Origin: Cereibacter sphaeroides 2.4.1
GTDB taxonomy: Bacteria > Pseudomonadota > Alphaproteobacteria > Rhodobacterales > Rhodobacteraceae
Length of the DNA: 32,000 bases
Reading direction: 5' to 3'
Assembly (NCBI RefSeq): GCF_000012905.2
Contig: NC_007493.2
Coordinates: 1,830,001 to 1,862,000, forward strand
This document shows positions 203 to 22,149 of this stretch, one piece after another (position 1 is the stretch's first letter; the number at the start of each line of letters is the position of its first letter). A program made the position numbers and the translations under genes. The notes below the pieces were generated by a model. The model did not search any database. It had not been told where the DNA came from and saw nothing but the letters and a program-made list of their open reading frames with translations.

Positions 203-2776
203 TCAGCCCAGCACCCGCGGCGCACCCGCGATCATCGCCACCGTCACCAGCACGGTCAGCCCCAGGAAGTGCCAGAACAGGGCCGAGTTCCACAAAGGCG
301 CGTCGTAGCGTGGCGTGATCCGCCCGAAGATCAGGCCCGCCAGCCCGTAGAGCTGGAAGATCAGGCCCGCGATCAGGTGGGCGACGGTCCAGACCACGAG
401 GACCCACATGCTGGCCGGATAGACATGCTCCGTGGGCTCGAGGCCCGCCACATGGGGCGAGGCGATCAGCGCGGCCCCGGTCGCGAGCGTCAGGAGCGGC
501 GCTGCGGAGAGGCACAGCCGGGCAAGGCCCGTGCGGTGCCGGCGGTTCGCCTCGCGCGCGGCGAGCGTCAGCGCCCAGGAGGCCGCGCCCAGCGCCAGCG
601 CCGCGAGGGCCAGCGGTCCGTCCGCGTGCGCAGCGCCCGCGGGGGGATAGTCGGTGCCCGCCGTCCAGTAGAAGAAGACCCCGAACACCAGGCTCGCGAA
701 GGCCGTGCTGTCACCCAGCATCGTGATCCAGACGGCCCACCAGCCGACCGCCCCGGAGCCCGAGACATAGATCGGCAACCGGAGCCCAAGCCCCACGTCG
801 GCCATCTCCTTCTCGGGGATCTCGGCCGATCCGGTCCAGAGCCACCAGACCACCATGGCCACGGCCAGAACCGCGCTGACGATGGCAGGCCCGTACCAGG
901 CGAAGGTCGGGAAGATGAAGGCGCCGCCCGTGAAGACTGCCGCCCAGATCGTCTTCCAGGTCGGCCCCCCGATCCGCAGAAGCTGGAGCGGGCGGCCGTC
1001 GATCACCGAGGTCACCAGCGTCTCGCGCCGCCCCGCCTCGGCATCGGGCAGGTAGAAGCGGCCGGCATCCATCCGGTCCACGAGCTCCCGCTGCTGCCAG
1101 AGCGGATAGCGCGTGTCGATGTAGGGGATCGAGCGGACGCCCCAGGATTCGTCCTCGAGATCGTGGGTCCATTCGAGCGTGCCGGCTCCCCACGGGTTGC
1201 GCTCGGAGAGCTTCGCCCGCTTCGGGCGCAGGAGATCCCAGACGAAGACCGCGAAGCCGGCCGCCATCACGAAGGCGCCGACGGTCGAGACGAGGTTCAG
1301 CCAGTCCCAGCCGACATGGCCGGGATAGGTGAAGACGCGCCGGGGCATCCCCTTCAGCCCGGTCAGGTGCATGGGCAGGAAGGTCACGTTGAAGCCGGTG
1401 AAGAGCAGCCAGAAGGACCAGCGCCCCAGCCGCTCCGACAGGGTCTTCTTGGCGATGACGGGGTAGAAGTAATAGACGCCCGCGATGACCGGAAAGACCA
1501 TGCCGCCGAACAGCGTGTAATGGAGGTGGGCCACGATGAAATAGGTGTCGTGGACCTGCCAGTCGAAGGGCGCGATGGCCACCATGACGCCGGTGAGCCC
1601 GCCTGCGGTGAAGACCGCGAGACCGCCCGCGATCCAGAGCATCGGCAGGATCATCTTCACGCGGCCCACCATGAGGGTGGCCACGAAGGCGAAAAGCTGG
1701 ATGCCCGTGGGGATGACGACCGCCTCGGAGGCCGCCGAGAAGAAGCCGAGCGACAGGGCCGGCAGCCCGGTGGTGAACATGTGGTGCACCCAGAGGCCGA
1801 AGCTGATGAAGCCCGTCCCCACCGCCGAGAGCACGATCCAGGAGTAGCCCACGATCGGGGTGCGCGCCGCCGTGGGTACGATCATCGCGGCAAGGGCGAT
1901 CGAGGGCAGGAAGATGATGTAGACCTCGGGATGGCCGAAGATCCAGAACAGGTGCTGCCAGAGCAGCGGATCCCCGCCCCTTTCGGGATCGAAGAAGGGC
2001 CAGTCGAACCCGCGCTCCATCTCGAACAGGAGATCGCCCGCGATCAGCGGCGGGAAGGCAAAGAGGATCATGCCGCCCACGACCAGCACATACCAAGCGT
2101 AGAGCGGCATCAGATTGACGCGCATCCCCGGCGGGCGGCACTTCAACACGCCCACGATCAGCTCGACTGCGGCGGCGATCGAGGCCACCTCGATGAAGGA
2201 CAGGCCCAGAAGCCAGATGTCCGAGCCCAGCCCCTCGTCCTGCGTGGCGAGCGGCGGATACATGAACCAGCCCGAGCGAGGCGCCGCATCGAACAGGATC
2301 GAGCCCAGCACGAAGACGCCCCCGATCAGGAAGCACCAGTAGCCATAGGCCGACAGGCGCGGGAACGGCAGGTCCCGCGCGCCCAGAAGCGAGGGCAGCA
2401 GGATGATCGAGATCGCCTCGAACATCGGAACGGCGAAGAGGAACATCATCGCCGAGCCGTGCATCGTGAAGAACTGGTTGAACCGGTCGGCCGAGAGGAA
2501 GTCGTTGTGGGGCACGGCGAGCTGCACCCGCATCAGCAGCGCCAGCACGCCCGCGCAGAGCATGAAGGCGAGCGCCGTCAGGGCATACCAGACGCCCACC
2601 TCGGTGTTGTTCACCGCCGACCAGTAGCGCCAGCCTTTGGGTGTCGCCCAGACCCGGCGCAGCCGGTCGGCCTGCGCCTCGGCGACCTCGGTCGGCACCG
2701 GCTCGGCGAGCATGGCCTCGGTCGGCGGAAAGGGACCTTCGGGAACCGGCGCGTCGGTGTCGCGGACTTTTCTCAT
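203..2776 (-). CDS. haem-copper (cytochrome c) oxidase subunit I fused to a subunit III-like C-terminal domain (857 aa)
   Basis: In-frame ATG at 2776 (MRKVRDTD...) overlaps the stop of the upstream subunit II gene as ATGA. Subunit I motifs are present: WIFGHPEVYIIFLP, WVHHMFTTG, VAHLHYTLFGG. A roughly 300 aa multi-TM extension ends in a subunit III-like LFWHFLG motif. The upstream part of the 1196 aa track ORF overlaps subunit II out of frame and is not used. Confidence 0.9.
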   Translation of the reverse strand: MRKVRDTDAPVPEGPFPPTEAMLAEPVPTEVAEAQADRLRRVWATPKGWRYWSAVNNTEVGVWYALTALAFMLCAGVLALLMRVQLAVPHNDFLSADRFNQFFTMHGSAMMFLFAVPMFEAISIILLPSLLGARDLPFPRLSAYGYWCFLIGGVFVLGSILFDAAPRSGWFMYPPLATQDEGLGSDIWLLGLSFIEVASIAAAVELIVGVLKCRPPGMRVNLMPLYAWYVLVVGGMILFAFPPLIAGDLLFEMERGFDWPFFDPERGGDPLLWQHLFWIFGHPEVYIIFLPSIALAAMIVPTAARTPIVGYSWIVLSAVGTGFISFGLWVHHMFTTGLPALSLGFFSAASEAVVIPTGIQLFAFVATLMVGRVKMILPMLWIAGGLAVFTAGGLTGVMVAIAPFDWQVHDTYFIVAHLHYTLFGGMVFPVIAGVYYFYPVIAKKTLSERLGRWSFWLLFTGFNVTFLPMHLTGLKGMPRRVFTYPGHVGWDWLNLVSTVGAFVMAAGFAVFVWDLLRPKRAKLSERNPWGAGTLEWTHDLEDESWGVRSIPYIDTRYPLWQQRELVDRMDAGRFYLPDAEAGRRETLVTSVIDGRPLQLLRIGGPTWKTIWAAVFTGGAFIFPTFAWYGPAIVSAVLAVAMVVWWLWTGSAEIPEKEMADVGLGLRLPIYVSGSGAVGWWAVWITMLGDSTAFASLVFGVFFYWTAGTDYPPAGAAHADGPLALAALALGAASWALTLAAREANRRHRTGLARLCLSAAPLLTLATGAALIASPHVAGLEPTEHVYPASMWVLVVWTVAHLIAGLIFQLYGLAGLIFGRITPRYDAPLWNSALFWHFLGLTVLVTVAMIAGAPRVLG

Positions 2777-3747
2777 TCGAGCGCCTCCAGCCAGGCCGCC
2801 AGGGCCTCGAGTTCCGCCTTCGACAGATGGCCATAGGCGGGCATCCGCACGCCGGGCTTGAAGGCCTCCGCATGCGCGATCCAGGAGACCAGCGCCCCCC
2901 GCTCCATCGGCAGGATCCCTGCGGCGAGCGTCGTGCGGCTGCCGATGTGGGTGAGATCGGGGCCGACGACGCCCGCGGCCGGCGTGCCGCGGACTGCGTG
3001 GCAGGCGCCGCAGCCTTCCCGGAAGAAGATCGCTTGTCCCTCGCCCTCGGGGGCCCGTGCAGGGGCGGCCTCGGCCTCGAGCCAGCGGGCGAATTCGGCC
3101 TCCTCCAGCACGACGGCATTCATGGCCATCAGCGCGTGCGAGGCGCCGCAGAATTCGGCGCACTGGCCACGGTAGATGCCGGGCGTCACCGGCTCGAGCG
3201 ACATCCGGGTGGTCCGCCCGGGGATCATGTCGGTCTTGCCGCCGAGGCCCGGCACCCAGAAGGAATGGATCACGCGCCCGGCCAGCAGCTCGATCTCGGT
3301 GCGGCGGCCGGCGGGCATGCGCAGCTCGTTGGCCGAGACCACGGGCTCTTCGGAGCCCGGAGGGTAGTAGTCCACCCGCCACCAGAATTCCTCGCCAGTG
3401 ATGCGCACCCGCAGCCCGTCGCCGGGCGCGCGCTGGTCCGGCATGATCGACAGGCCCCACGACAGAAGGGACGTCAGCACTACGAGCGGCAGCACGATGC
3501 CGCCGCCGATGATGACCGCCTCGGCCAGCTTGCGCGACATGCGGCCGGGCCTGCGGCGGGTGACGTAGAGAAAGAGGCCGTTCAGAGACAGCCAGAGCAG
3601 GACGGCCCCCACCAGCATCACGGTGAAGAGGCGATTGATCTGCAGGGCATCCGCGCCGCCGGCCGAAAAGACCGACTGAGGTCCGCCGCATCCGGCCGAT
3701 ATCGTCAGGATGAGAAGGCCGAGGCCTGCCCGGTATCGCGCTCGCAT
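2773..3747 (-). CDS. cytochrome c oxidase subunit II with a C-terminal c-type cytochrome domain (caa3-type), probable lipoprotein
   Basis: CuA motif QCAEFCGASHALM, haem c motif CGACHAV near the C-terminus, and an N-terminal lipobox-like LTISAGC. Translationally coupled to subunit I. Confidence 0.9.
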   Translation of the reverse strand: MRARYRAGLGLLILTISAGCGGPQSVFSAGGADALQINRLFTVMLVGAVLLWLSLNGLFLYVTRRRPGRMSRKLAEAVIIGGGIVLPLVVLTSLLSWGLSIMPDQRAPGDGLRVRITGEEFWWRVDYYPPGSEEPVVSANELRMPAGRRTEIELLAGRVIHSFWVPGLGGKTDMIPGRTTRMSLEPVTPGIYRGQCAEFCGASHALMAMNAVVLEEAEFARWLEAEAAPARAPEGEGQAIFFREGCGACHAVRGTPAAGVVGPDLTHIGSRTTLAAGILPMERGALVSWIAHAEAFKPGVRMPAYGHLSKAELEALAAWLEALE

Positions 3748-4081: not shown

Positions 4082-4852
4082 TCAGCGAGCGACGGTCGGA
4101 AGCGGGCGGCCCTCGGCCCCCTCTGTTTCCGGCGAGGCCTCGATCATCCGACGGCGCCGCAGCCAGCGCGCAACGAGAAGGCAGCCGAGCGCCCAGGCAG
4201 AACCGGCGGTCCAGCCAGCCAGCACATCAGTCGGCCAGTGGACGCCCAGATAGACCCGGCTCGTGCCGACGGCCACCGTGACCAGTACGGCGAGGGTCAA
4301 GATATAGACCTTGACCCACAGGCGCGGTTGCGTGCGGGCCACGAGCGCCGCCAGCGTCAGGTAGGTGACGGCCGCCATCATCGCATGGCCCGACGGAAAG
4401 CTCGCCGTGTAAGTGATCGTCTCGTGCGGGACGAGGTCCGGCCTCGGCCTGTCGAAGAAGCGCTTGGCGGTGAAGCTCAGCGCCTGACCGCTGCCGGTGG
4501 CGATCAGGACGAACCACATGGTCCGCCAGCGGCCGGTGAGCCCGAGAAAGACCGCCACGGCCAGAGTGATGAAGGCGAGGATCCCCACGCCGCCCAGAGC
4601 GGTCACGTCGCGGGCGAGCTCCTCGAACCATGCGGGCCCCAGCGGATCGGAGGGATCGGCGGGGTTGCGCATGAGCAGGAGCAGCCACTCGTCGAAAGCA
4701 TGCGAGTCGCCCTCGACGATCTCATCGGCCAGCTGGGCGAAGGCCCAGCCAAGCGCCGAGATCGCGAGGAGGAACGCCACCGTCCAGCGCTCGCCCCATG
4801 TGCCGAGACGCAAGGCAAGTTTCGATAGGGAACGGAAGGAAGGTCGTGTCAT
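4082..4852 (-). CDS. PAP2-family (phosphatidic acid phosphatase type 2) membrane phosphatase
   Basis: All three PAP2 signature motifs are present: KRFFDRPRP, PSGH, SRVYLGVHWPTD. Multiple TM helices. Confidence 0.85.
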   Translation of the reverse strand: MTRPSFRSLSKLALRLGTWGERWTVAFLLAISALGWAFAQLADEIVEGDSHAFDEWLLLLMRNPADPSDPLGPAWFEELARDVTALGGVGILAFITLAVAVFLGLTGRWRTMWFVLIATGSGQALSFTAKRFFDRPRPDLVPHETITYTASFPSGHAMMAAVTYLTLAALVARTQPRLWVKVYILTLAVLVTVAVGTSRVYLGVHWPTDVLAGWTAGSAWALGCLLVARWLRRRRMIEASPETEGAEGRPLPTVAR

Positions 4853-5104
4853 GCCGCCTCGGGACTGCTGCGCATAGCGCTCGGGACAGCGCAGGGGCTG
4901 GATGATAGGGGCTGCGGCAGGGAGAGCAAGGCCGCGGCAAATCCCATTCCCGCGAGCGTCAGGGGGCAGGAAAGAGCCCGGCCCTCCCGAGACGGCGAGT
5001 GTCAGGATGCGGGCCAGCGCCCCGCCCCATCGCTTGGCGGTGCCCGAGAATCGGCACGAGATCAGACCCGCAGCCCGAAGCGCCGCATCCGGCCGCCCGA
5101 CGAA

Positions 5105-5587
5105 TCAGTGACGCAGCGTCGCGCCCAGGTTGCGAAGCTCGGCGAGCTGCGCTTCGGAGCTTTTGGCGATCCCGTCGGTCAGATCGTGAAGCCGCTGCAC
5201 ATGCTCGAGCGCGAACTGCGCTTCGGCATCGTCGAGCTCGCGGTCGTTGCGGCAGAAGAAGCCGAGCGTCCGCGCCGACGCTTCGCCGACCGAGACCACC
5301 AGCCCGTACCGCAGGCCATATTCCGCAGCCTTTTCCATGACTCCCTGCTCGTCCATGTCGCGAAGCTCGCTCCAGCGGCAGATCCCCGGATGTTCGAGAC
5401 CCCACCGCACCGTCGGATCGACGAAGATCATCGCCTTCTCCGCATAGAGGTTCACCCACTCCTGAGGGTAGGTCTGGTAGAGCAGAGTCGGATTGGCAAA
5501 GCGGATCCGGACCCCGATGGCGAAGTGCCAGTCGGAATGGGCGGCCACGGCGGAAAGTAGATCACGTACGCTCGGAACGTTCACCAT
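5105..5587 (-). CDS. autoinducer-binding-domain protein lacking the LuxR HTH DNA-binding domain (160 aa)
   Basis: LuxR-type ligand-domain pattern YPQEWVNLY...VDPTVRWG...CRWSEL...RTLGFF (Trp, Tyr, Asp-Pro, Trp, Gly positions). Clearly paralogous to the N-terminal domain of the divergent gene at 5674-6294. The ORF stops after SSEAQLAELRNLGATLRH, roughly the first helix of where the HTH domain would begin. Confidence 0.8.
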   Translation of the reverse strand: MVNVPSVRDLLSAVAAHSDWHFAIGVRIRFANPTLLYQTYPQEWVNLYAEKAMIFVDPTVRWGLEHPGICRWSELRDMDEQGVMEKAAEYGLRYGLVVSVGEASARTLGFFCRNDRELDDAEAQFALEHVQRLHDLTDGIAKSSEAQLAELRNLGATLRH

Positions 5588-5673
5588 GCTTTGTATCGGC
5601 CCGCAGGTTGTGTATCAGAAAGAGGCACGGCATCATGCCCCGCGACTGCTACTTTATGGTCTGTCGGATTACA

Positions 5674-6294
5674 ATGGAACAGCACAAGCTTATGCATCTG
5701 TCAGACATGAAGGAAGCATTCCTGCAGATCGCACAAGCGGGATTCTATGTGGCCCTCCGGCTCGGATTCTACTCCCCCGAAGACGAGTTGAACACCTTCC
5801 CGGAGCAGTTCGTCGAACTTTACACGGCTCGTGGCCTCGCCCTTCAGGACCCGCTGATGCGCTGGACCTTCACCAACCATGGCGCGCTGCGCTGGAGCGC
5901 AGTCGACCAGCCCGACCCGCTGGGGGTGATCGCACGCTACCGGCAGTATGGGATGCGCTACGGGGCCACGATATGTCTTGCGGGGCGCGGACCCGTGCCG
6001 AAGAAGAGCTTCGGCATCTTCGCCCGCGCCGACCGGGAGTTCAGCGACGCCGAGATCGTCGACCTGCGCGAGCTGCTGACCACGCTCCATGTCAACGAGC
6101 CGCAGTCGCTCACCGAAAGCCAGGTCGAAGTGCTGCGGATGCTGTCGACAGGCATGCGGTACAAGCAGATGGCCTATGCGCTGGGGATCTCGGAGAGCGC
6201 CGTCAAGGCCCGCCTGAAGGGCGCGGCCCAGCGGATGAACGCCAAGACCGCGGCCCAGGCCGCCTCGGTCGCCGCGAGTCGCGGCATCCTATAG
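5674..6294 (+). CDS. LuxR-family transcriptional regulator (autoinducer-binding domain plus HTH), second receptor paralog
   Basis: Ligand domain FPEQFVELY...QDPLMRW...LRWSAV and C-terminal LuxR HTH LTESQVEVLRMLSTGMRYKQMAYALGISESAVKARL. Start is uncertain (ATG at 5674, 5692 or 5707). The 5608 start in the track lies in the AT-richer divergent promoter region and is unlikely. Confidence 0.8.
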   Translation: MEQHKLMHLSDMKEAFLQIAQAGFYVALRLGFYSPEDELNTFPEQFVELYTARGLALQDPLMRWTFTNHGALRWSAVDQPDPLGVIARYRQYGMRYGATICLAGRGPVPKKSFGIFARADREFSDAEIVDLRELLTTLHVNEPQSLTESQVEVLRMLSTGMRYKQMAYALGISESAVKARLKGAAQRMNAKTAAQAASVAASRGIL

Positions 6295-6404: not shown

Positions 6405-7106
6405 ATGGACATCATCGACCTCAGCACAGTTGCCACGGACGATGCGAGCTTCCTCGACTACATCGACCAGCTCTGCCAGAAGCTGGGCTTCGACTATGCC
6501 TCCTATGCGACAACGAGTCCGATGACGGGCGCGGTCCAGGGCTATGCCAACTATCCCGACAGCTGGAAGATGCACTACATGCGGCGCAACCTGCACCGCG
6601 TGGATCCCACCATCCACAAGTCGGCGCTGAGCATCGCCCCCGTGGACTGGAGCCGCTTCGAGCGCGACGAGCGTTTCCGGGCCGTGTTCTTTGCGGCCGA
6701 GGATTTCGGCATCACCCCTCAGGGGCTGACGGTGCCCGTCCGCGGCCCCTACGGCGACCGGGGCCTTCTGTCGGTGACGCGCAACTGCGCCCGCCCGGAA
6801 TGGGAGAAGCACAAGCGCGCCGTGATCGGCGAGCTGCAGGTTGCGGCCGTCCACCTGCACGATGCGGTCATGCGGTCGGACGTGATCTCACGCGCCCTGC
6901 GCCAGCCGAGGCTCTCCACGCGCGAGATCGAGGTCCTGCAATGGGCGGCGGCGGGCAAGTCGCAGACGGACATCGGCGACATCCTCGGCATCTCGCACCG
7001 CACGGTCGAGGTGCACCTGCGCTCGGCGCGCGAGAAGCTCGGCACCCTCTCGACGGTGCAGGCCGTGGGCCGTGCGATCGGGCTGGGTCTGGTCTATCCG
7101 AGGTGA
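6405..7106 (+). CDS. cerR: LuxR-family acyl-homoserine-lactone-responsive regulator
   Basis: Complete ligand-domain signature (YPDSWKMHY, VDPT, VDWSRF) and HTH LSTREIEVLQWAAAGKSQTDIGDILGISHRTVEVHL. GGGAG SD upstream. Lies immediately upstream of a LuxI-type synthase. The symbol comes from my recollection of the R. sphaeroides cer locus. Confidence 0.9.
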   Translation: MDIIDLSTVATDDASFLDYIDQLCQKLGFDYASYATTSPMTGAVQGYANYPDSWKMHYMRRNLHRVDPTIHKSALSIAPVDWSRFERDERFRAVFFAAEDFGITPQGLTVPVRGPYGDRGLLSVTRNCARPEWEKHKRAVIGELQVAAVHLHDAVMRSDVISRALRQPRLSTREIEVLQWAAAGKSQTDIGDILGISHRTVEVHLRSAREKLGTLSTVQAVGRAIGLGLVYPR

Positions 7107-7174
7107 GAGTGCTCCGCCGGAAGGCGTATGAGGCACTTTGAGCCCTATCCCTGCCCCAGAGGACCGAAATTCAA

Positions 7175-7267
7175 CCGGAAATTGCCAAAGGAAGCCTTCC
7201 GGCTACGGGATTCCCCTCATAGCCGAAACGGGTCGGGATGCGCAACTATAGCCGTATGTTACGCAAC
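7175..7267. promoter_or_regulatory. cerI upstream region with several dyad and direct-repeat elements (candidate lux-box-type operator)
   Basis: CCGGAA-N16-TTCCGG (7175-7202) encloses the perfect 11-bp palindrome GGAAGCCTTCC (7190-7200). An imperfect 24-bp dyad GGCTACGGGATTCCCCTCATAGCC lies at 7201-7224 (7 of 12 arm positions pair). CGCAAC occurs as a direct repeat at 7241 and 7262. None matches the canonical lux box closely. Confidence 0.2.
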
Positions 7268-7282
7268 CTTGGGGATTGAAGA

Positions 7283-7915
7283 ATGATCTTCATTATCGAC
7301 TCGCTCAACCTCCGCGAGCACGCAGACATCGTGAAGGACATGTTCCGGTTGCGCAAGCGCGTTTTTGCGGACCGTCTCGGCTGGGACGTTCAGATTTCGC
7401 AGGGCATGGAGCGCGACCGCTTCGACGACCTGGATCCGGCTCACGTCGTGAGCGTGGATGACGAGGGCCGCGTGGTCGGCTGCATGCGCCTGCTTCAGAC
7501 GACGGGCCCGCACATGCTCTCCGACGTGTTCAGCTCGATCCTGGACGGAGAGCCTCCGCTGCGCAGCGCAACTCTCTGGGAAGCCACGCGCTTCTGTGTC
7601 GACACCGACCGCCTGGTTTCGGGCCGCGCCCGCAATTCGATCGCCTATGTCACGAGCGAAGTGATGATCGGCGCCTTCGAATTCGCCATGTCGGCGGGTG
7701 TGACCGATGCGGTCGCCGTGATCGATCCGGTGATGGACCGCGTGCTGAAGCGGTCGGGCAATGCGCCGCAGGGCTATGTCGGCACGCCGAAGCCGATGGG
7801 CAAGGTGACGGCTCTGGCCGCGCTGATGGACTGCTCGGAAGAGCGTGTGAAGCGCATCCGCGATTTCGCCGGCATCTACCACGACGTGACGCAACCGCAG
7901 ACGGTCATCGCCTGA
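7283..7915 (+). CDS. cerI: acyl-homoserine-lactone synthase (LuxI family)
   Basis: LuxI-family pattern FRLRKRVFADRLGWDV...ERDRFDDLDP...GCMRLLQTTGPHML...WEATRFCVD. GGGGA SD 8 nt upstream. Confidence 0.93.
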   Translation: MIFIIDSLNLREHADIVKDMFRLRKRVFADRLGWDVQISQGMERDRFDDLDPAHVVSVDDEGRVVGCMRLLQTTGPHMLSDVFSSILDGEPPLRSATLWEATRFCVDTDRLVSGRARNSIAYVTSEVMIGAFEFAMSAGVTDAVAVIDPVMDRVLKRSGNAPQGYVGTPKPMGKVTALAALMDCSEERVKRIRDFAGIYHDVTQPQTVIA

Positions 7916-8029: not shown

Positions 8030-8302
8030 ATGGCGCAGCCTGAGCCAGACCGGCAGAAGGTGACCGAACTCGCCGCCCGGCGCCCCCCGCGGGACGACCG
8101 GGGCGAGCACGGCTGGCTTGTGCCTCACCTGATCTCGCTCGTGGGCTATGCCGAGCGCCACGGGCTGACCGAGATCGAGGCAGCGCTCGCCGAGGCGGCC
8201 GAACGGATCGCGCCTGCGGTGCAATCCGAGGCTGCGGAGACGACCCCGGCCAGCGAGCGGCTGTTCTATCTCCGCCGCCCCTACCCCGAGAAGCGCGACT
8301 GA
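8030..8302 (+). CDS. small hypothetical protein (90 aa) downstream of cerI
   Basis: GGAGGA SD 5 nt before the ATG and strongly GC-biased third codon positions across the whole ORF. No family recognised. Confidence 0.55.
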   Translation: MAQPEPDRQKVTELAARRPPRDDRGEHGWLVPHLISLVGYAERHGLTEIEAALAEAAERIAPAVQSEAAETTPASERLFYLRRPYPEKRD

Positions 8303-18527: not shown

Positions 18528-19008
18528 TCGCCCCGCCGGTCCGCCGGGCGATCAGCGCGAGGGAAAGCCAGTGACCTCGACCTTGACGGATCGGGCGGCG
18601 ATCCATCCAAGTTCTGGCGACTTGAGCCATCAGGCAGAACGGGAGGCGACATCCTCCGCGTGAGGGCGAAAGCCCCCGGCTCTTTCCCTGCCCCTACCCT
18701 CGAGCGCGCGGCCTACCGCCGCCGACATCGAACCTCCACGAAAGCGAAGGTCGGCACCGCACCCGACCTGAGGCCTGCACTCCCGGACGCGCTCTCTGAT
18801 GCCGCTTGAGGCAGCAACACGAATGAGCGGGCGCGGGCACCAGACGGTGGCGATGAACGCGACAGAGGCATGAGCGGCGCGGCAGAAGGCTCGCACACGG
18901 TCCGCAGATGAGTCGCAAACGGAGCGGACCCAAAGGGGGAAGGTCGGAACGGCTGCCGGAACTCGAACGGCTCCACCAGCTTTGCGGTTGAAAATGTCAG
19001 TGAAGTCA

Positions 19009-19056
19009 TGGAGGCGGGTACCGGAATCGAACCGGTCTTCACGGATTTGCAATCCG
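19009..19056. repeat. att-type direct repeat: exact copy of the 3' 48 nt of tRNA-Cys
   Basis: 19009-19056 matches 22076-22123 base for base (tggaggcgggtaccggaatcgaaccggtcttcacggatttgcaatccg). The flanks diverge on both sides. Confidence 0.9.
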
Positions 19057-19085
19057 GTTAATTCCATTGAAAATAAAGAGCCGAC

Positions 19086-19148
19086 CTGTAAACGCACCGC
19101 GTTTGTTCACGACGAACAATCAAGCACTTATGAGGCGTCTGTAAACGC
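19086..19148 (+). repeat. two direct copies of CTGTAAACGC in the distal arm (candidate arm-type recombinase or excisionase sites)
   Basis: CTGTAAACGC at 19086-19095 and 19139-19148. The same TGTAAACG core occurs twice more, in the same orientation, at 22009-22029 in the other arm. Confidence 0.4.
19103..19119. promoter_or_regulatory. perfect inverted repeat TTGTTC-N5-GAACAA between the two arm repeats (candidate operator)
   Basis: TTGTTCACGACGAACAA read directly at 19103-19119, upstream of the rightward island genes. Confidence 0.3.
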
Positions 19149-19332
19149 GGAAGTCGACCAATCCGCAAAGAAAAACCCCGACGCGCTGGCGGGCGCAGTC
19201 GGGGCGGATAGTGAGGGTGCCACCGGTCAGGAAGGCAATCCCGAGGCAGAATGCTACCCGAACCGTGGCCTTCGCGCAATTGCCCTCTATCGGGCTATCT
19301 GGGCCGCCCATCCGCACGACGCTGCCGACATC

Positions 19333-19617
19333 ATGACGGAAGAGTTGTTGCGTCTCTCGGCGGGCACCCCTCCCCATGACGTGTTCGGCCGGGTGCGCGA
19401 GGACGCCCGGTGGTGGGCCGCCGTCGCCTCTCCGGTCGAGCTGGTGGAGTACATGGCGGCCGCCATGCGCGCCATCCTCGGCGGGCGGACGGCGCTCTGC
19501 CTCGACCAGCGCAAGCGCCTGATGGTCGAGACGTGGCACTCCCTGCCCGACGCGGAGAAGCAAGCCTTCCTCGACCGCGTTGCCCCTCACGCGGAGGAGG
19601 GCCGCCGCCGTGGATGA
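19333..19617 (+). CDS. hypothetical island protein (94 aa from the first ATG)
   Basis: The track ORF 18982-19617 starts inside the tRNA fragment, so its 5' part is not credible. The first in-frame ATG/GTG/TTG after the repeat is at 19333. The stop overlaps the candidate GTG start of the primase ORF (GTGGATGA). Confidence 0.4.
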   Translation: MTEELLRLSAGTPPHDVFGRVREDARWWAAVASPVELVEYMAAAMRAILGGRTALCLDQRKRLMVETWHSLPDAEKQAFLDRVAPHAEEGRRRG

Positions 19618-21049
19618 TCCATTTGCCAGCCTCGAGCCTCTCGCCGTCGCGCCCTCTGGTCCGGAGGGGGTCCGCGCGCAGTTCGATCAAATGGAGGATA
19701 TCCCGCCGCCTCGGCCGCGCCAGCCGCCGCCTGCGCAGGAAGATCCTGTTGAGATCGAGGTGACTGAGGATGGCGTTGCCCGCGCCTTCACCGAAAAGTA
19801 CGGCGGCACTCTCCGCTTCGATCACGACGCGGGCCGGTGGTATCACTGGCAGGAAGACCATTGGCAAGCCGACACGACTTCGCGCGCCTTCGAATACTGC
19901 CGCCGCCTCGCCCGCCTCGCATCGGAGGGGGCGAAGCACTCGCTCCTCTCGACGGCACGCAAGGCATCGTTCGCGGGCGGCGTCGAGCGCTTGGCGCGGG
20001 CCGATCCGGCGCACGCGGTGACGCAGGAGGCATGGGATCGGGACCCGTGGCTCGTCGCCTGTCCGGGTGAGACGGTAGACCTGCGCACCGGGCGGAGCGC
20101 CGTGCCTCGCCCCGAGGACGGCATCACGCGCAGGGTGGCCGTAGCGCCCGCTGCGCAGGAGACGTGCCCGACGTGGTGGCAGTTCCTAGAGGATGCGACC
20201 GGCGCCGACTCGAGTGTCATGCGGTTCCTGCAGCAGTGGGCGGGCTACAGCCTGACCGGCATCACGCGGGAGCACACGCTGGTGTTTCTCTATGGCGACG
20301 GCGGCAACGGGAAGTCGGTGTTCATCAACACGCTGACCGGTCTCCTGGGCGACTACGCCGCCACGGCCGGCATGGAGACCTTCACAGCGTCGAAGAGCGA
20401 CCGGCACCCGACCGACCTTGCGATGTTGGCCGGCGCGCGTCTGGTGGCGGCATCGGAGACCGAGGAGGGCCGCGCGTGGGCCGAGAGCCGCATCAAGCAG
20501 ATGACCGGCGGGGACCGGATCACGGCCCGCTTCATGCGCCGGGACTTCTTCACATACACGCCGCAGTTCAAGCTGACGCTGGTGGGGAACCACCGCCCTG
20601 CCCTCGCGAACGTCAAACCGGTAGAGCCGTGGGCGCTCGTCGTGCCGGCCGAGCTGGAAACCGTGGCGCAGCAAGTTCTGGCCGAGATCGCCGCGGCGGC
20701 GGTTTCGGACGTGAACCCCTTCAGCGGGACGCTTGAGCTGATCGTTGAGCCGGGTCTCACCAGCGCCACCGGCTGGTACCTCATCGGCAATCCCGCCCTG
20801 CATGACGGCCTCGCCCATGCGTTCCTCGACGGTCAATCCGCGCCGCGGATCGAGACACGGGCGGGCTGGAACACCCTCGGGATGGAGTTCCGCCTCACCT
20901 GGGCCGTGGATGCCAAGTTCATCGGTACCGCGTCGTGGTTCCGCAATCCCGGCGCGTCCGGGTGTCCACGCTGTCGGCCGCGAAACGCGCAAAGGCAAGG
21001 GGTGGCACTTCTATGCCTGGCGCGGCGGTCCGAAGTTCTGGATCGATGA
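19580..21049 (+). CDS. P4-family primase / D5-like SF3 NTPase, truncated after motif C and fused in frame to an unrelated phage-like C-terminal segment
   Basis: D5_N-like region (WDRDPWLVACPGETVDLRTG), Walker A YGDGGNGKS, Walker B LVAASETEEG, motif C LTLVGNH. The expected arginine-finger region (RR..F) is absent after about 20610. The remaining roughly 145 aa (..NPFSGTLELIVEPGL..WYLIGNP..FLDGQSAPRIETRAGWNTLGMEFR..) look like a different protein. The start may be the GTG at 19610. Confidence 0.65.
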   Translation: MPLTRRRAAAVDDPFASLEPLAVAPSGPEGVRAQFDQMEDIPPPRPRQPPPAQEDPVEIEVTEDGVARAFTEKYGGTLRFDHDAGRWYHWQEDHWQADTTSRAFEYCRRLARLASEGAKHSLLSTARKASFAGGVERLARADPAHAVTQEAWDRDPWLVACPGETVDLRTGRSAVPRPEDGITRRVAVAPAAQETCPTWWQFLEDATGADSSVMRFLQQWAGYSLTGITREHTLVFLYGDGGNGKSVFINTLTGLLGDYAATAGMETFTASKSDRHPTDLAMLAGARLVAASETEEGRAWAESRIKQMTGGDRITARFMRRDFFTYTPQFKLTLVGNHRPALANVKPVEPWALVVPAELETVAQQVLAEIAAAAVSDVNPFSGTLELIVEPGLTSATGWYLIGNPALHDGLAHAFLDGQSAPRIETRAGWNTLGMEFRLTWAVDAKFIGTASWFRNPGASGCPRCRPRNAQRQGVALLCLARRSEVLDR

Positions 21050-22001
21050 GGCCCACTATCCAAGCAGCCGGGAGTTCCTCGCGGCTTACACCGAAGCGAC
21101 GGCGCTGCCTCGGGCGGCAGCCTACACGGTCCCGAATCTGGTGGACGACTTTCTTTCGAGCCCGGAAATGCCGAAGGGCGAACGGACCCGAACGGACTAC
21201 CGTCGGTGGGGTCTGCGGCTGGCTGAGGAGTTCAAAGACGACCCGGCCGAGATCTTCGAAGACCCCGGCTCGCGGGGAGAGGTGAACGAGTGGCGCAAGC
21301 AGTGGGCGCACTCACCGCGTCAGTATGACTATGCCGGGACCGTCGCCGCCGTGCTCCTGAACTGGGCGGTGGATCAAGGCAAGATCCGGCAGCATCACTG
21401 CCAGCGGCTCCGCAAGGTGTACGAGGTGGACCGCGCCGAGATTGTCTGGACGCCGGATCACCGCGAGGCAATCGAGGCCAAGGCCCCTGAATGGATCCGC
21501 CGCATTCTGACGGCTGCCTGCGAAACCGGCCTGCGCGTGGCTGACCTCACGAAGCTCGCGTGGAGCCACGTTGAGGCAACGCCGCATGGCCGTCGCATTC
21601 GGGTGAGGACCAGCAAGCGCAAGCGGGTGGCATACATTCCCGTCACCGAAGCGATGGGGAAGCTCCTGGACGCTACGCCGCGCGACCGGATGCTGATCCT
21701 CCTGAGCGAGCGGGGAAAGCCGCTGACGCCGCACCGCGCCTCGGAGGGGCTGCGCCAGTGGCGGGACAAGGCCGGGCTGACACCGGAGTCCCTGGGCTAC
21801 GATCTGCGCCTTCAGGACGCGCGCGGTACCGCTGCCACGCGGCTTCTGTCCGCGGGCCTCTCCCTCGCCGAGATCGCCGCTCACATGGGCTGGAGCATCC
21901 GACACGCCGCCGCAGTGATCGAGCACTACGCGCGCGTCTCGCCCGATGAAACCGACGCAATCTTGGTCAAGCTCGCGACCGCAAAAGGGTCCGCATCATG
22001 A
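20910..22001 (+). CDS. tyrosine recombinase / phage integrase
   Basis: Catalytic-domain pattern ..TGLRVADLTKLAW.. (Arg), ..LQDARGTAATRLL.. (second Arg), ..MGWSIRHAAAVIEHYAR.. (Tyr). Lies adjacent to the tRNA-Cys 3' end. The start is uncertain: 20910 is the nearest in-frame ATG, and the part of the track ORF upstream of it overlaps the previous ORF. Confidence 0.85.
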   Translation: MPSSSVPRRGSAIPARPGVHAVGRETRKGKGWHFYAWRGGPKFWIDEAHYPSSREFLAAYTEATALPRAAAYTVPNLVDDFLSSPEMPKGERTRTDYRRWGLRLAEEFKDDPAEIFEDPGSRGEVNEWRKQWAHSPRQYDYAGTVAAVLLNWAVDQGKIRQHHCQRLRKVYEVDRAEIVWTPDHREAIEAKAPEWIRRILTAACETGLRVADLTKLAWSHVEATPHGRRIRVRTSKRKRVAYIPVTEAMGKLLDATPRDRMLILLSERGKPLTPHRASEGLRQWRDKAGLTPESLGYDLRLQDARGTAATRLLSAGLSLAEIAAHMGWSIRHAAAVIEHYARVSPDETDAILVKLATAKGSAS

Positions 22002-22008
22002 ACGAGAT

Positions 22009-22029
22009 TGTAAACGCTCCTGTAAACGG
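22009..22029 (+). repeat. two further TGTAAACG copies in the integrase-proximal arm
   Basis: TGTAAACGC at 22009-22017 and TGTAAACGG at 22021-22029, 47 nt from the core repeat. Confidence 0.4.
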
Positions 22030-22075
22030 AGCAACCGAGGAGAAGGAGGATAGCTTGCAAGCCATTGAGAATGCT

Positions 22076-22149
22076 TGGAGGCGGGTACCGGAATCGAACC
22101 GGTCTTCACGGATTTGCAATCCGCTGCGTAACCTCTCCGCCAACCCGCC
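22076..22149 (-). tRNA. tRNA-Cys (anticodon GCA)
   Basis: Reverse complement is GGCGGGTTGGCGGAGAGGTTACGCAGCGGATTGCAAATCCGTGAAGACCGGTTCGATTCCGGTACCCGCCTCCA. Acceptor GGCGGGT/ACCCGCC, anticodon loop TTGCAAA, T arm ACCGG TTCGATT CCGGT, encoded CCA. Confidence 0.95.

Follow-up and report, generated by a model that had tools for sequence, protein, structure and literature searches.

Gene Organization of the cer Locus

The cerN gene of Cereibacter sphaeroides 2.4.1 lies on the minus strand at positions 5105–5587 of the window, which is the whole 32,000-nucleotide stretch of contig NC_007493.2 analyzed here. It consists of an ATG start, 160 codons, and a stop, and its product carries a LuxR-type autoinducer-binding domain without a helix-turn-helix (HTH) domain. 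Across a divergent spacer of 86 bp (5588–5673) is cerM (5674–6294, plus strand), a full-length LuxR paralog that matches both Autoind_bind (46.4 bits) and GerE (40.5 bits) and is the published target of CerN. An alternative annotated start of cerM at 5635 would give a protein of 219 aa. The predicted open reading frames of CerM orthologs span 200–262 aa, mostly 203–206 aa, and the prevalence of the 203–206 aa length in other genera favors the start at 5674.

Two further quorum-sensing genes follow on the plus strand. The first, cerR (6405–7106), encodes a canonical LuxR-type receptor (Autoind_bind 128.9 bits, GerE 61.8 bits), and the second, cerI (7283–7915), encodes a LuxI-type AHL synthase (Autoind_synth 282.8 bits). 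Between them is orf2 (7128–7286, plus strand), a frame of 52 aa (Puskas 1997) that matches no Pfam family and is detected only in the closest Cereibacter relatives (loci L001–L003 of the genome scan described below); a role for it in motility was not found in the 2024 CerN study (PMC11655674). Directly 3′ of cerI is a second small frame on the plus strand, orf90 (8030–8302), with 90 aa and a GC3 of 0.86.

The spacer between cerN and cerM is a putative control region that is strongly conserved in Cereibacter. Its mean column identity is 87% in an alignment of six Cereibacter/Rhodobacter species, and one block, GATACACAACCT on the cerN strand, is invariant across the six. A palindrome, GGCATGATGCC, is likewise conserved, with perfect symmetry in three of the six species, and overlaps the alternative cerM start at 5635. 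Neither this spacer nor those between cerM and cerR and between cerR and cerI contains a sigma-70 consensus promoter, and an inverted-repeat scan of the three returned short palindromes only, the meaning of which is uncertain. The published CerM-site motif, TNT(N5)AAGACA(N2)T, has no exact match in the window. With two mismatches allowed there are 17 matches against 16.8 expected, none of them in the cerN–cerM spacer. Autoregulation of CerM through this motif is unsupported, given a spacer that lacks a match and a count for the window that sits at expectation.

On its other side, cerN is separated by a spacer of only ~150–250 nt from a downstream PAP2 phosphatase gene (4082–4852) whose start possibly lies further upstream. 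Past the PAP2 gene is a pair of caa3-type oxidase genes on the minus strand (203–3747). Subunit II of this oxidase is fused to a cytochrome c domain (2773–3747), and the COX1 protein of ~877 aa has a C-terminal extension of ~350 aa beyond the COX1 domain that is possibly a fused subunit III. Beyond cerI, the window contains opgGHC, a methionine-type ABC transporter, and a Na+/H+ antiporter. A small integrated element (19002–22149) is found at a tRNA-Cys gene (22076–22149, minus strand), where the copies of a 55-nt direct repeat (19002–19056 and 22069–22123) share 95% identity and reproduce the 3′ part of the tRNA. Encoded in the ~3 kb that they enclose are a D5_N/DUF5906 primase-helicase-like protein (19580–21049) and a tyrosine integrase (within 20745–22001).

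Domain Structure of CerN

The Pfam scan of CerN returns Autoind_bind (PF03472) over residues 32–130 with 65.7 bits and an E-value of 4.3e-18, well above the family gathering score of 23 bits, and neither GerE nor any other HTH family appears at E ≤ 1. The NCBIfam matches are weak and partial, covering the SdiA and TraR models in their ligand-binding halves only. The six pocket positions of LuxR proteins (W57, Y61, D70, P71, W85, and G113 in TraR numbering) are occupied in CerN by W44 and Y48 (QEWVNLY), D57 and P58 (VDPT), W72 (CRW), and G95. None of the six varies in an alignment of 30 sequences, and the pattern WYDPWG is found in 27 of 27 genomic CerN sequences. Since it has no GerE HTH (PF00196), CerN is not a canonical two-domain LuxR-family transcription factor.

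The tertiary structure of CerN was modeled with AF2 from the 30-sequence alignment, with a mean pLDDT of 92.6 and a pTM of 0.88. The model has a five-stranded sheet with flanking helices, a long helix at residues 120–136, and a terminal helix at residues 145–158. Its top Foldseek matches in the PDB are exclusively ligand-binding domains (LBDs) of the LuxR family, namely those of RhlR, SdiA, YenR, CepR2, QscR, TraR, LasR, and CviR, with a probability of 1.00 and TM scores of 0.55–0.70; for RhlR, SdiA, QscR, and TraR the scores are 0.6–0.7. A profile search of PDB sequences likewise finds RhlR at 2.6e-13. The predicted fold is that of the alpha/beta/alpha LuxR ligand domain.

The point at which CerN ends can be located by comparison with its paralog. 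In full-length CerM, the aligned counterpart of the final 18 residues of CerN, SSEAQLAELRNLGATLRH, is LTESQVEVLRMLSTGMRY, which forms the first ~19 positions of the CerM GerE match. Because LTESQVEVLRMLSTGMRY opens that match, the CerN chain stops once the first helix of the former DNA-binding domain is complete. The corresponding C-terminal helix motif, S-E-x-x-L-x-x-L-R, is discernible throughout the alignment of CerN homologs. Beyond the stop, a tblastn search of positions 4600–5300 with the HTH segments of CerM and CerR gave HTH-only matches that are all at E ≥ 0.5. The tblastn alignment of full-length CerM extends ~90 nt past the cerN stop with no recognizable HTH-like match there, and the three downstream reading frames have zero Pfam matches at E ≤ 10. 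What remains in CerN is the AHL pocket plus helix 1 of the ancestral DNA-binding domain, with no part of that domain after it.

A preliminary description of this DNA had read these features from the letters and a list of open reading frames. It recognized a 160-aa product with every hallmark residue of the LuxR pocket, on which the reading frame, Pfam, and the alignment agree. It also placed the stop about 18 residues into the HTH region and saw no remainder of an HTH downstream. The alignment to CerM bears out the former and the searches of the downstream DNA, with tblastn noise only, the latter.

Identity with the Published CerN

The protein is already known. It matches ABA79294.1 of R. sphaeroides 2.4.1 exactly, and the same sequence is present in records of ATCC 17029. 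In strain WS8N of C. sphaeroides, CerN (RSWS8N_05815) was described by Hernandez-Valle, Vega-Baray, Poggio, and Camarena (2024, MicrobiologyOpen 13:e70012; PMC11655674), who report that it adjoins CerM (RSWS8N_05820) and that both lie upstream of cerR–cerI. The GenBank protein of WS8N, EGJ21575.1, is a shorter and older gene model of 147 residues, of which 146 are identical to the window protein; the sole mismatch is the annotated start residue.

The published scores also correspond to those obtained here. HMMER gives 65.7 bits for CerN against 66.1 in Table 2 of PMC11655674, 46.4/40.5 against 47.5/42.9 for CerM, 128.9 against 128.1 for CerR, and 282.8 against 281.5 for CerI. CerN and CerM are 30% identical in our alignment and 31% in theirs (PMC11655674). 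The gene order, with cerN divergent from cerM and followed by cerR–cerI, is the same in both, and the published W57F substitution of CerM is present in the window CerM (PMC11655674). By the WS8N GenBank protein, the gene order, and the matching scores, the window protein is identified as CerN.

The published experiments were performed in strain WS8N/AM1, and the window holds the 2.4.1-type allele, with identical protein sequence. The gene, its partner, and its mechanism have been known since December 2024 (PMC11655674), so the preliminary description was out of date in calling the role untested. A literature search for later work on CerN found no subsequent paper, and CerN is absent from a 2026 review of LuxR protein–protein interactions (PMC13043044).

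Conservation of CerN and Its Neighbors

A homolog search among 5.8 billion proteins retrieved 40 CerN homologs with 34–98% identity. Nearly all are 150–165 aa in length (134–179 aa with fragments included), and PF03472 is present in all 40, one of which has an additional PF08282 match. In parallel, a scan of GTDB with one genome per species gave 34 loci (L001–L034), in each of which open reading frames were called and sorted by phmmer against the four window proteins. An HTH-less cerN is present in 26 of these loci and stops at the same point in 25; the exception, L026, has a shorter frame of 134 aa beside a contig end. The 26 belong to five Cereibacter species, Rhodobacter sp. NSM, seven Thioclava, Pseudorhodobacter, Albidovulum, Loktanella, Sulfitobacter, Marinosulfonomonas, HTCC2150, and several MAGs. 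The other eight loci (L027–L034) encode full-length GtaR-like receptors.

The neighborhood is conserved together with the gene. In all 26 loci cerN is divergent from a CerM-type full-length LuxR, a CerR-type gene is adjacent in 24, and a synthase is present in 22, normally in the order of the window. Pairwise Nei–Gojobori dN/dS values of cerN, for pairs with unsaturated dS, are 0.07–0.33, which indicates purifying selection. Judged from these genomes, the cassette cerN<>cerM–cerR–cerI is widespread in Rhodobacteraceae and old. The synteny analysis of PMC11655674 covered three other species only and did not find cerN/cerM conservation.

Some of the loci deviate from the usual arrangement. Thioclava sp. 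JE_KL1 and T. sediminum (L016 and L017) have a cerN–cerM pair at locus positions 4272–5471 and lack both cerR and cerI for 5 kb on either side, and such a synthase-less pair could respond to foreign AHLs. Two MAGs, one labeled Sedimenticola (L020) and one labeled Anaerolineaceae (L023), contribute short contigs with a complete cerN<>cerM–cerR–cerI cassette of the Rhodobacteraceae type. Mis-binning of the contigs, not a transfer to distant phyla, is the probable reason for these labels.

The small frame orf90 goes unmentioned in PMC11655674. In 11 loci from six genera (L001–L006, L008, L013, L014, L015, and L026), cerI is directly followed by an orf90 homolog, and in L014 the homolog accompanies a relocated cerI. 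The conserved core reads H-W-[LIV]-[VI]..L..[LIMV].Y.E......A.E.I.P, and AF2 predicts a helical hairpin at residues 23–68, with confidence in the core only (pLDDT ~90). No Pfam family matches orf90, the protein database search gave no functional lead and the annotation “hypothetical” only, and Foldseek found zero structural matches to the model in the PDB. The frame possibly belongs to the quorum-sensing cassette as a further part.

Divergence of CerN and CerM

CerM differs from CerN at one pocket position, where W57 is replaced by phenylalanine (EQFVELY). This substitution has been proposed as the basis of the dependence of CerM on CerN (PMC11655674). Among the CerM orthologs it is confined to the window and to C. 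johrii, Rhodobacter sp. NSM, C. azotoformans, and C. ovatus. The tryptophan is kept in 21 of 26 orthologs (WYDPWG), with one ortholog reading WYDPWS, which means that W57F cannot generally account for the CerN requirement. From these sequences, the proposal is unlikely to hold for the CerM family as a whole.

Whether CerN arose by an ancient duplication or by rapid divergence was left open by the authors (PMC11655674). The LBDs are at least 38% identical among CerN proteins, at least 37% among CerM proteins, and at most 35% between the two. An NJ tree was built with distances capped for saturated pairs and with 100 bootstraps. The CerM clade is recovered in 99 of 100 replicates, and CerN is separated from CerM and the GtaR-like sequences in 92 of 100. 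CerN monophyly appears in only 9 of 100, with the distant CerR outgroup attaching within the CerN group. The identities and the tree favor an ancient split into separate orthologous groups that are paired in at least 26 species-level genomes.

Role of CerN in Quorum Sensing

The function of CerN has been addressed by genetics and biochemistry in WS8N/AM1. Deletion of cerN or cerI abolishes Fla2 motility and CtrA, and deletion of cerM suppresses both phenotypes (PMC11655674). The cerN-deletion phenotype is complemented in trans (PMC11655674). In vitro, His-CerM is pulled down by GST-CerN only when AHL is present (PMC11655674). CerM occupies its DNA sites without AHL and is released by CerN together with AHL, as seen both by EMSA and with a lacZ reporter in E. 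coli, and CerN alone gives no DNA binding in EMSA (PMC11655674). The product of CerI is a long-chain AHL, and CerM represses ctrA and Fla2 flagellar motility indirectly (PMC11655674).

The best explanation of these data, to which we assign a probability of about 90%, is that CerN antagonizes CerM in an AHL-dependent manner and effectively serves as its sensor subunit. CerI supplies the long-chain AHL as ligand. CerM, which sits on DNA while AHL is absent, indirectly represses ctrA and Fla2 motility. Once AHL is available, CerN associates with the divergently encoded CerM, most plausibly as a heterodimer formed between the two LBDs. The CerN–AHL combination then takes CerM off the DNA and switches the regulon at high cell density. 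The preliminary description had suggested a dominant-negative action of the TrlR kind on the divergent paralog, and the AHL-dependent pull-down, the release from DNA, and the epistasis agree with it (PMC11655674).

Two observations qualify the model. AHL binding by CerN itself is suggested by the AHL requirement of the CerN–CerM interaction and of CerM release (PMC11655674). AHL alone also weakened CerM–DNA complexes in vitro (PMC11655674), and for this reason we infer rather than observe that CerN, not CerM, holds the AHL. In addition, the CerM protein level is lower in the cerN-deletion strain (PMC11655674), so CerN also has a stabilizing effect that goes beyond a simple antagonist. The term anti-activator, used in the preliminary description, is imprecise in that CerM binds DNA without AHL and CerN with AHL transmits the signal instead of braking it (PMC11655674).

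One alternative is a different target. CerN might also, or mainly, be a general dominant-negative factor acting on CerR, as the preliminary description thought plausible, or on other LuxR homologs such as GtaR, RSWS8N_15394, and RS15160. The four genes do co-occur, with cerR–cerI after cerM in 22–24 of 26 loci. However, genetic support is absent from the published results: among the double mutants swimming returns only in cerN cerM, and an in-frame cerR deletion has no motility or CtrA phenotype (PMC11655674). CerR is not the partner in the phenotypes tested. The two Thioclava genomes in which cerN–cerM stands alone, with neither cerR nor cerI in the 5 kb to either side, point to CerM as the obligate partner. 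A broader or different target seems improbable.

It was also suggested that CerN is a signal sink, which would merely sequester AHL and raise the threshold of CerR or CerM without contacting either. An intact and invariant pocket in a protein that has no output domain is what a sink would look like. Its loss, however, should give a stronger or earlier response to AHL; instead, deletion of cerN mimics deletion of cerI, abolishing the AHL response (PMC11655674). The suppression by the cerM deletion and the physical pull-down of CerM by CerN likewise speak against sequestration, as does AHL production, which is unchanged in the cerN deletion and shows CerN to be dispensable for AHL synthesis (PMC11655674). 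We hold this reading to be very unlikely.

The idea that cerN is decaying and functionless, left over from a full-length LuxR gene by a recent nonsense or frameshift mutation, can be dismissed as having next to no probability: the protein does end inside the GerE-homologous region, but the truncation point is kept to within a few residues in orthologs with identities down to 34–45% from at least six genera and many MAGs, the dN/dS values are low, no HTH relic lies downstream, and the phenotype of the deletion strain can be complemented in trans (PMC11655674). The preliminary description had itself argued against a simple recent frameshift, and the HTH-less orthologs in 26 species-level genomes speak equally against a strain-specific nonsense allele. 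The reading of CerN as an AHL-dependent antagonist of CerM is retained.

Comparison with Related Systems

The closest functional parallel is TrlR/TraS of the octopine-type Ti plasmids of Agrobacterium tumefaciens, which the authors of the CerN study also drew, noting differences (PMC11655674). TrlR/TraS and CerN are both LuxR LBDs without a DNA-binding domain, and both inhibit a full-length LuxR paralog through an AHL-dependent association in which DNA binding is lost (PMC11655674). Their origins differ, as TrlR arose recently as a frameshift copy and shares 88% identity with TraR (PMC11655674), whereas CerN is only 30% identical to CerM and forms an old orthologous group of its own. Their targets differ as well, since TraR depends on AHL for DNA binding and CerM binds without it (PMC11655674). 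TrlR dampens quorum sensing, while CerN is required for the quorum response (PMC11655674).

By sequence, the closest full-length relatives of the CerN LBD are in the clade of GtaR (Rhodobacter capsulatus) and LuxR1 (Dinoroseobacter shibae). The mean LBD identity of CerN is 38% to the GtaR-like proteins of L027–L034 and 29% to CerM, and CerN, CerM, and GtaR have been assigned to one orthogroup (PMC11655674). GtaR resembles CerM in acting on DNA without AHL (PMC11655674). The GtaR-like proteins retain GerE, in contrast to CerN, which has no DNA-binding domain, and have a synthase-like gene of their own after them. A more distant example cited by the authors is a bacterial enhancer-binding protein whose DNA binding is modulated by a paralog devoid of the DNA-binding domain (PMC11655674). 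This family is unrelated to CerN, and no small-molecule signal is involved.

Implications

That an inference about CerN drawn from sequence alone proved correct makes this locus a useful calibration point. For specialists, the comparative analysis adds evidence in favor of an ancient split of CerN and CerM, the limited distribution of W57F, and the conserved but unannotated orf90. The same action of the module would be expected outside C. sphaeroides. We see roughly even odds that Rhodobacteraceae have in CerN and CerM an old and widespread “split” AHL receptor, with an HTH-less sensor gating a ligand-independent DNA-binding protein and a small fifth component possibly included. Such a split-receptor module may usually travel as cerN<>cerM–cerR–cerI together with the small helical open reading frame.
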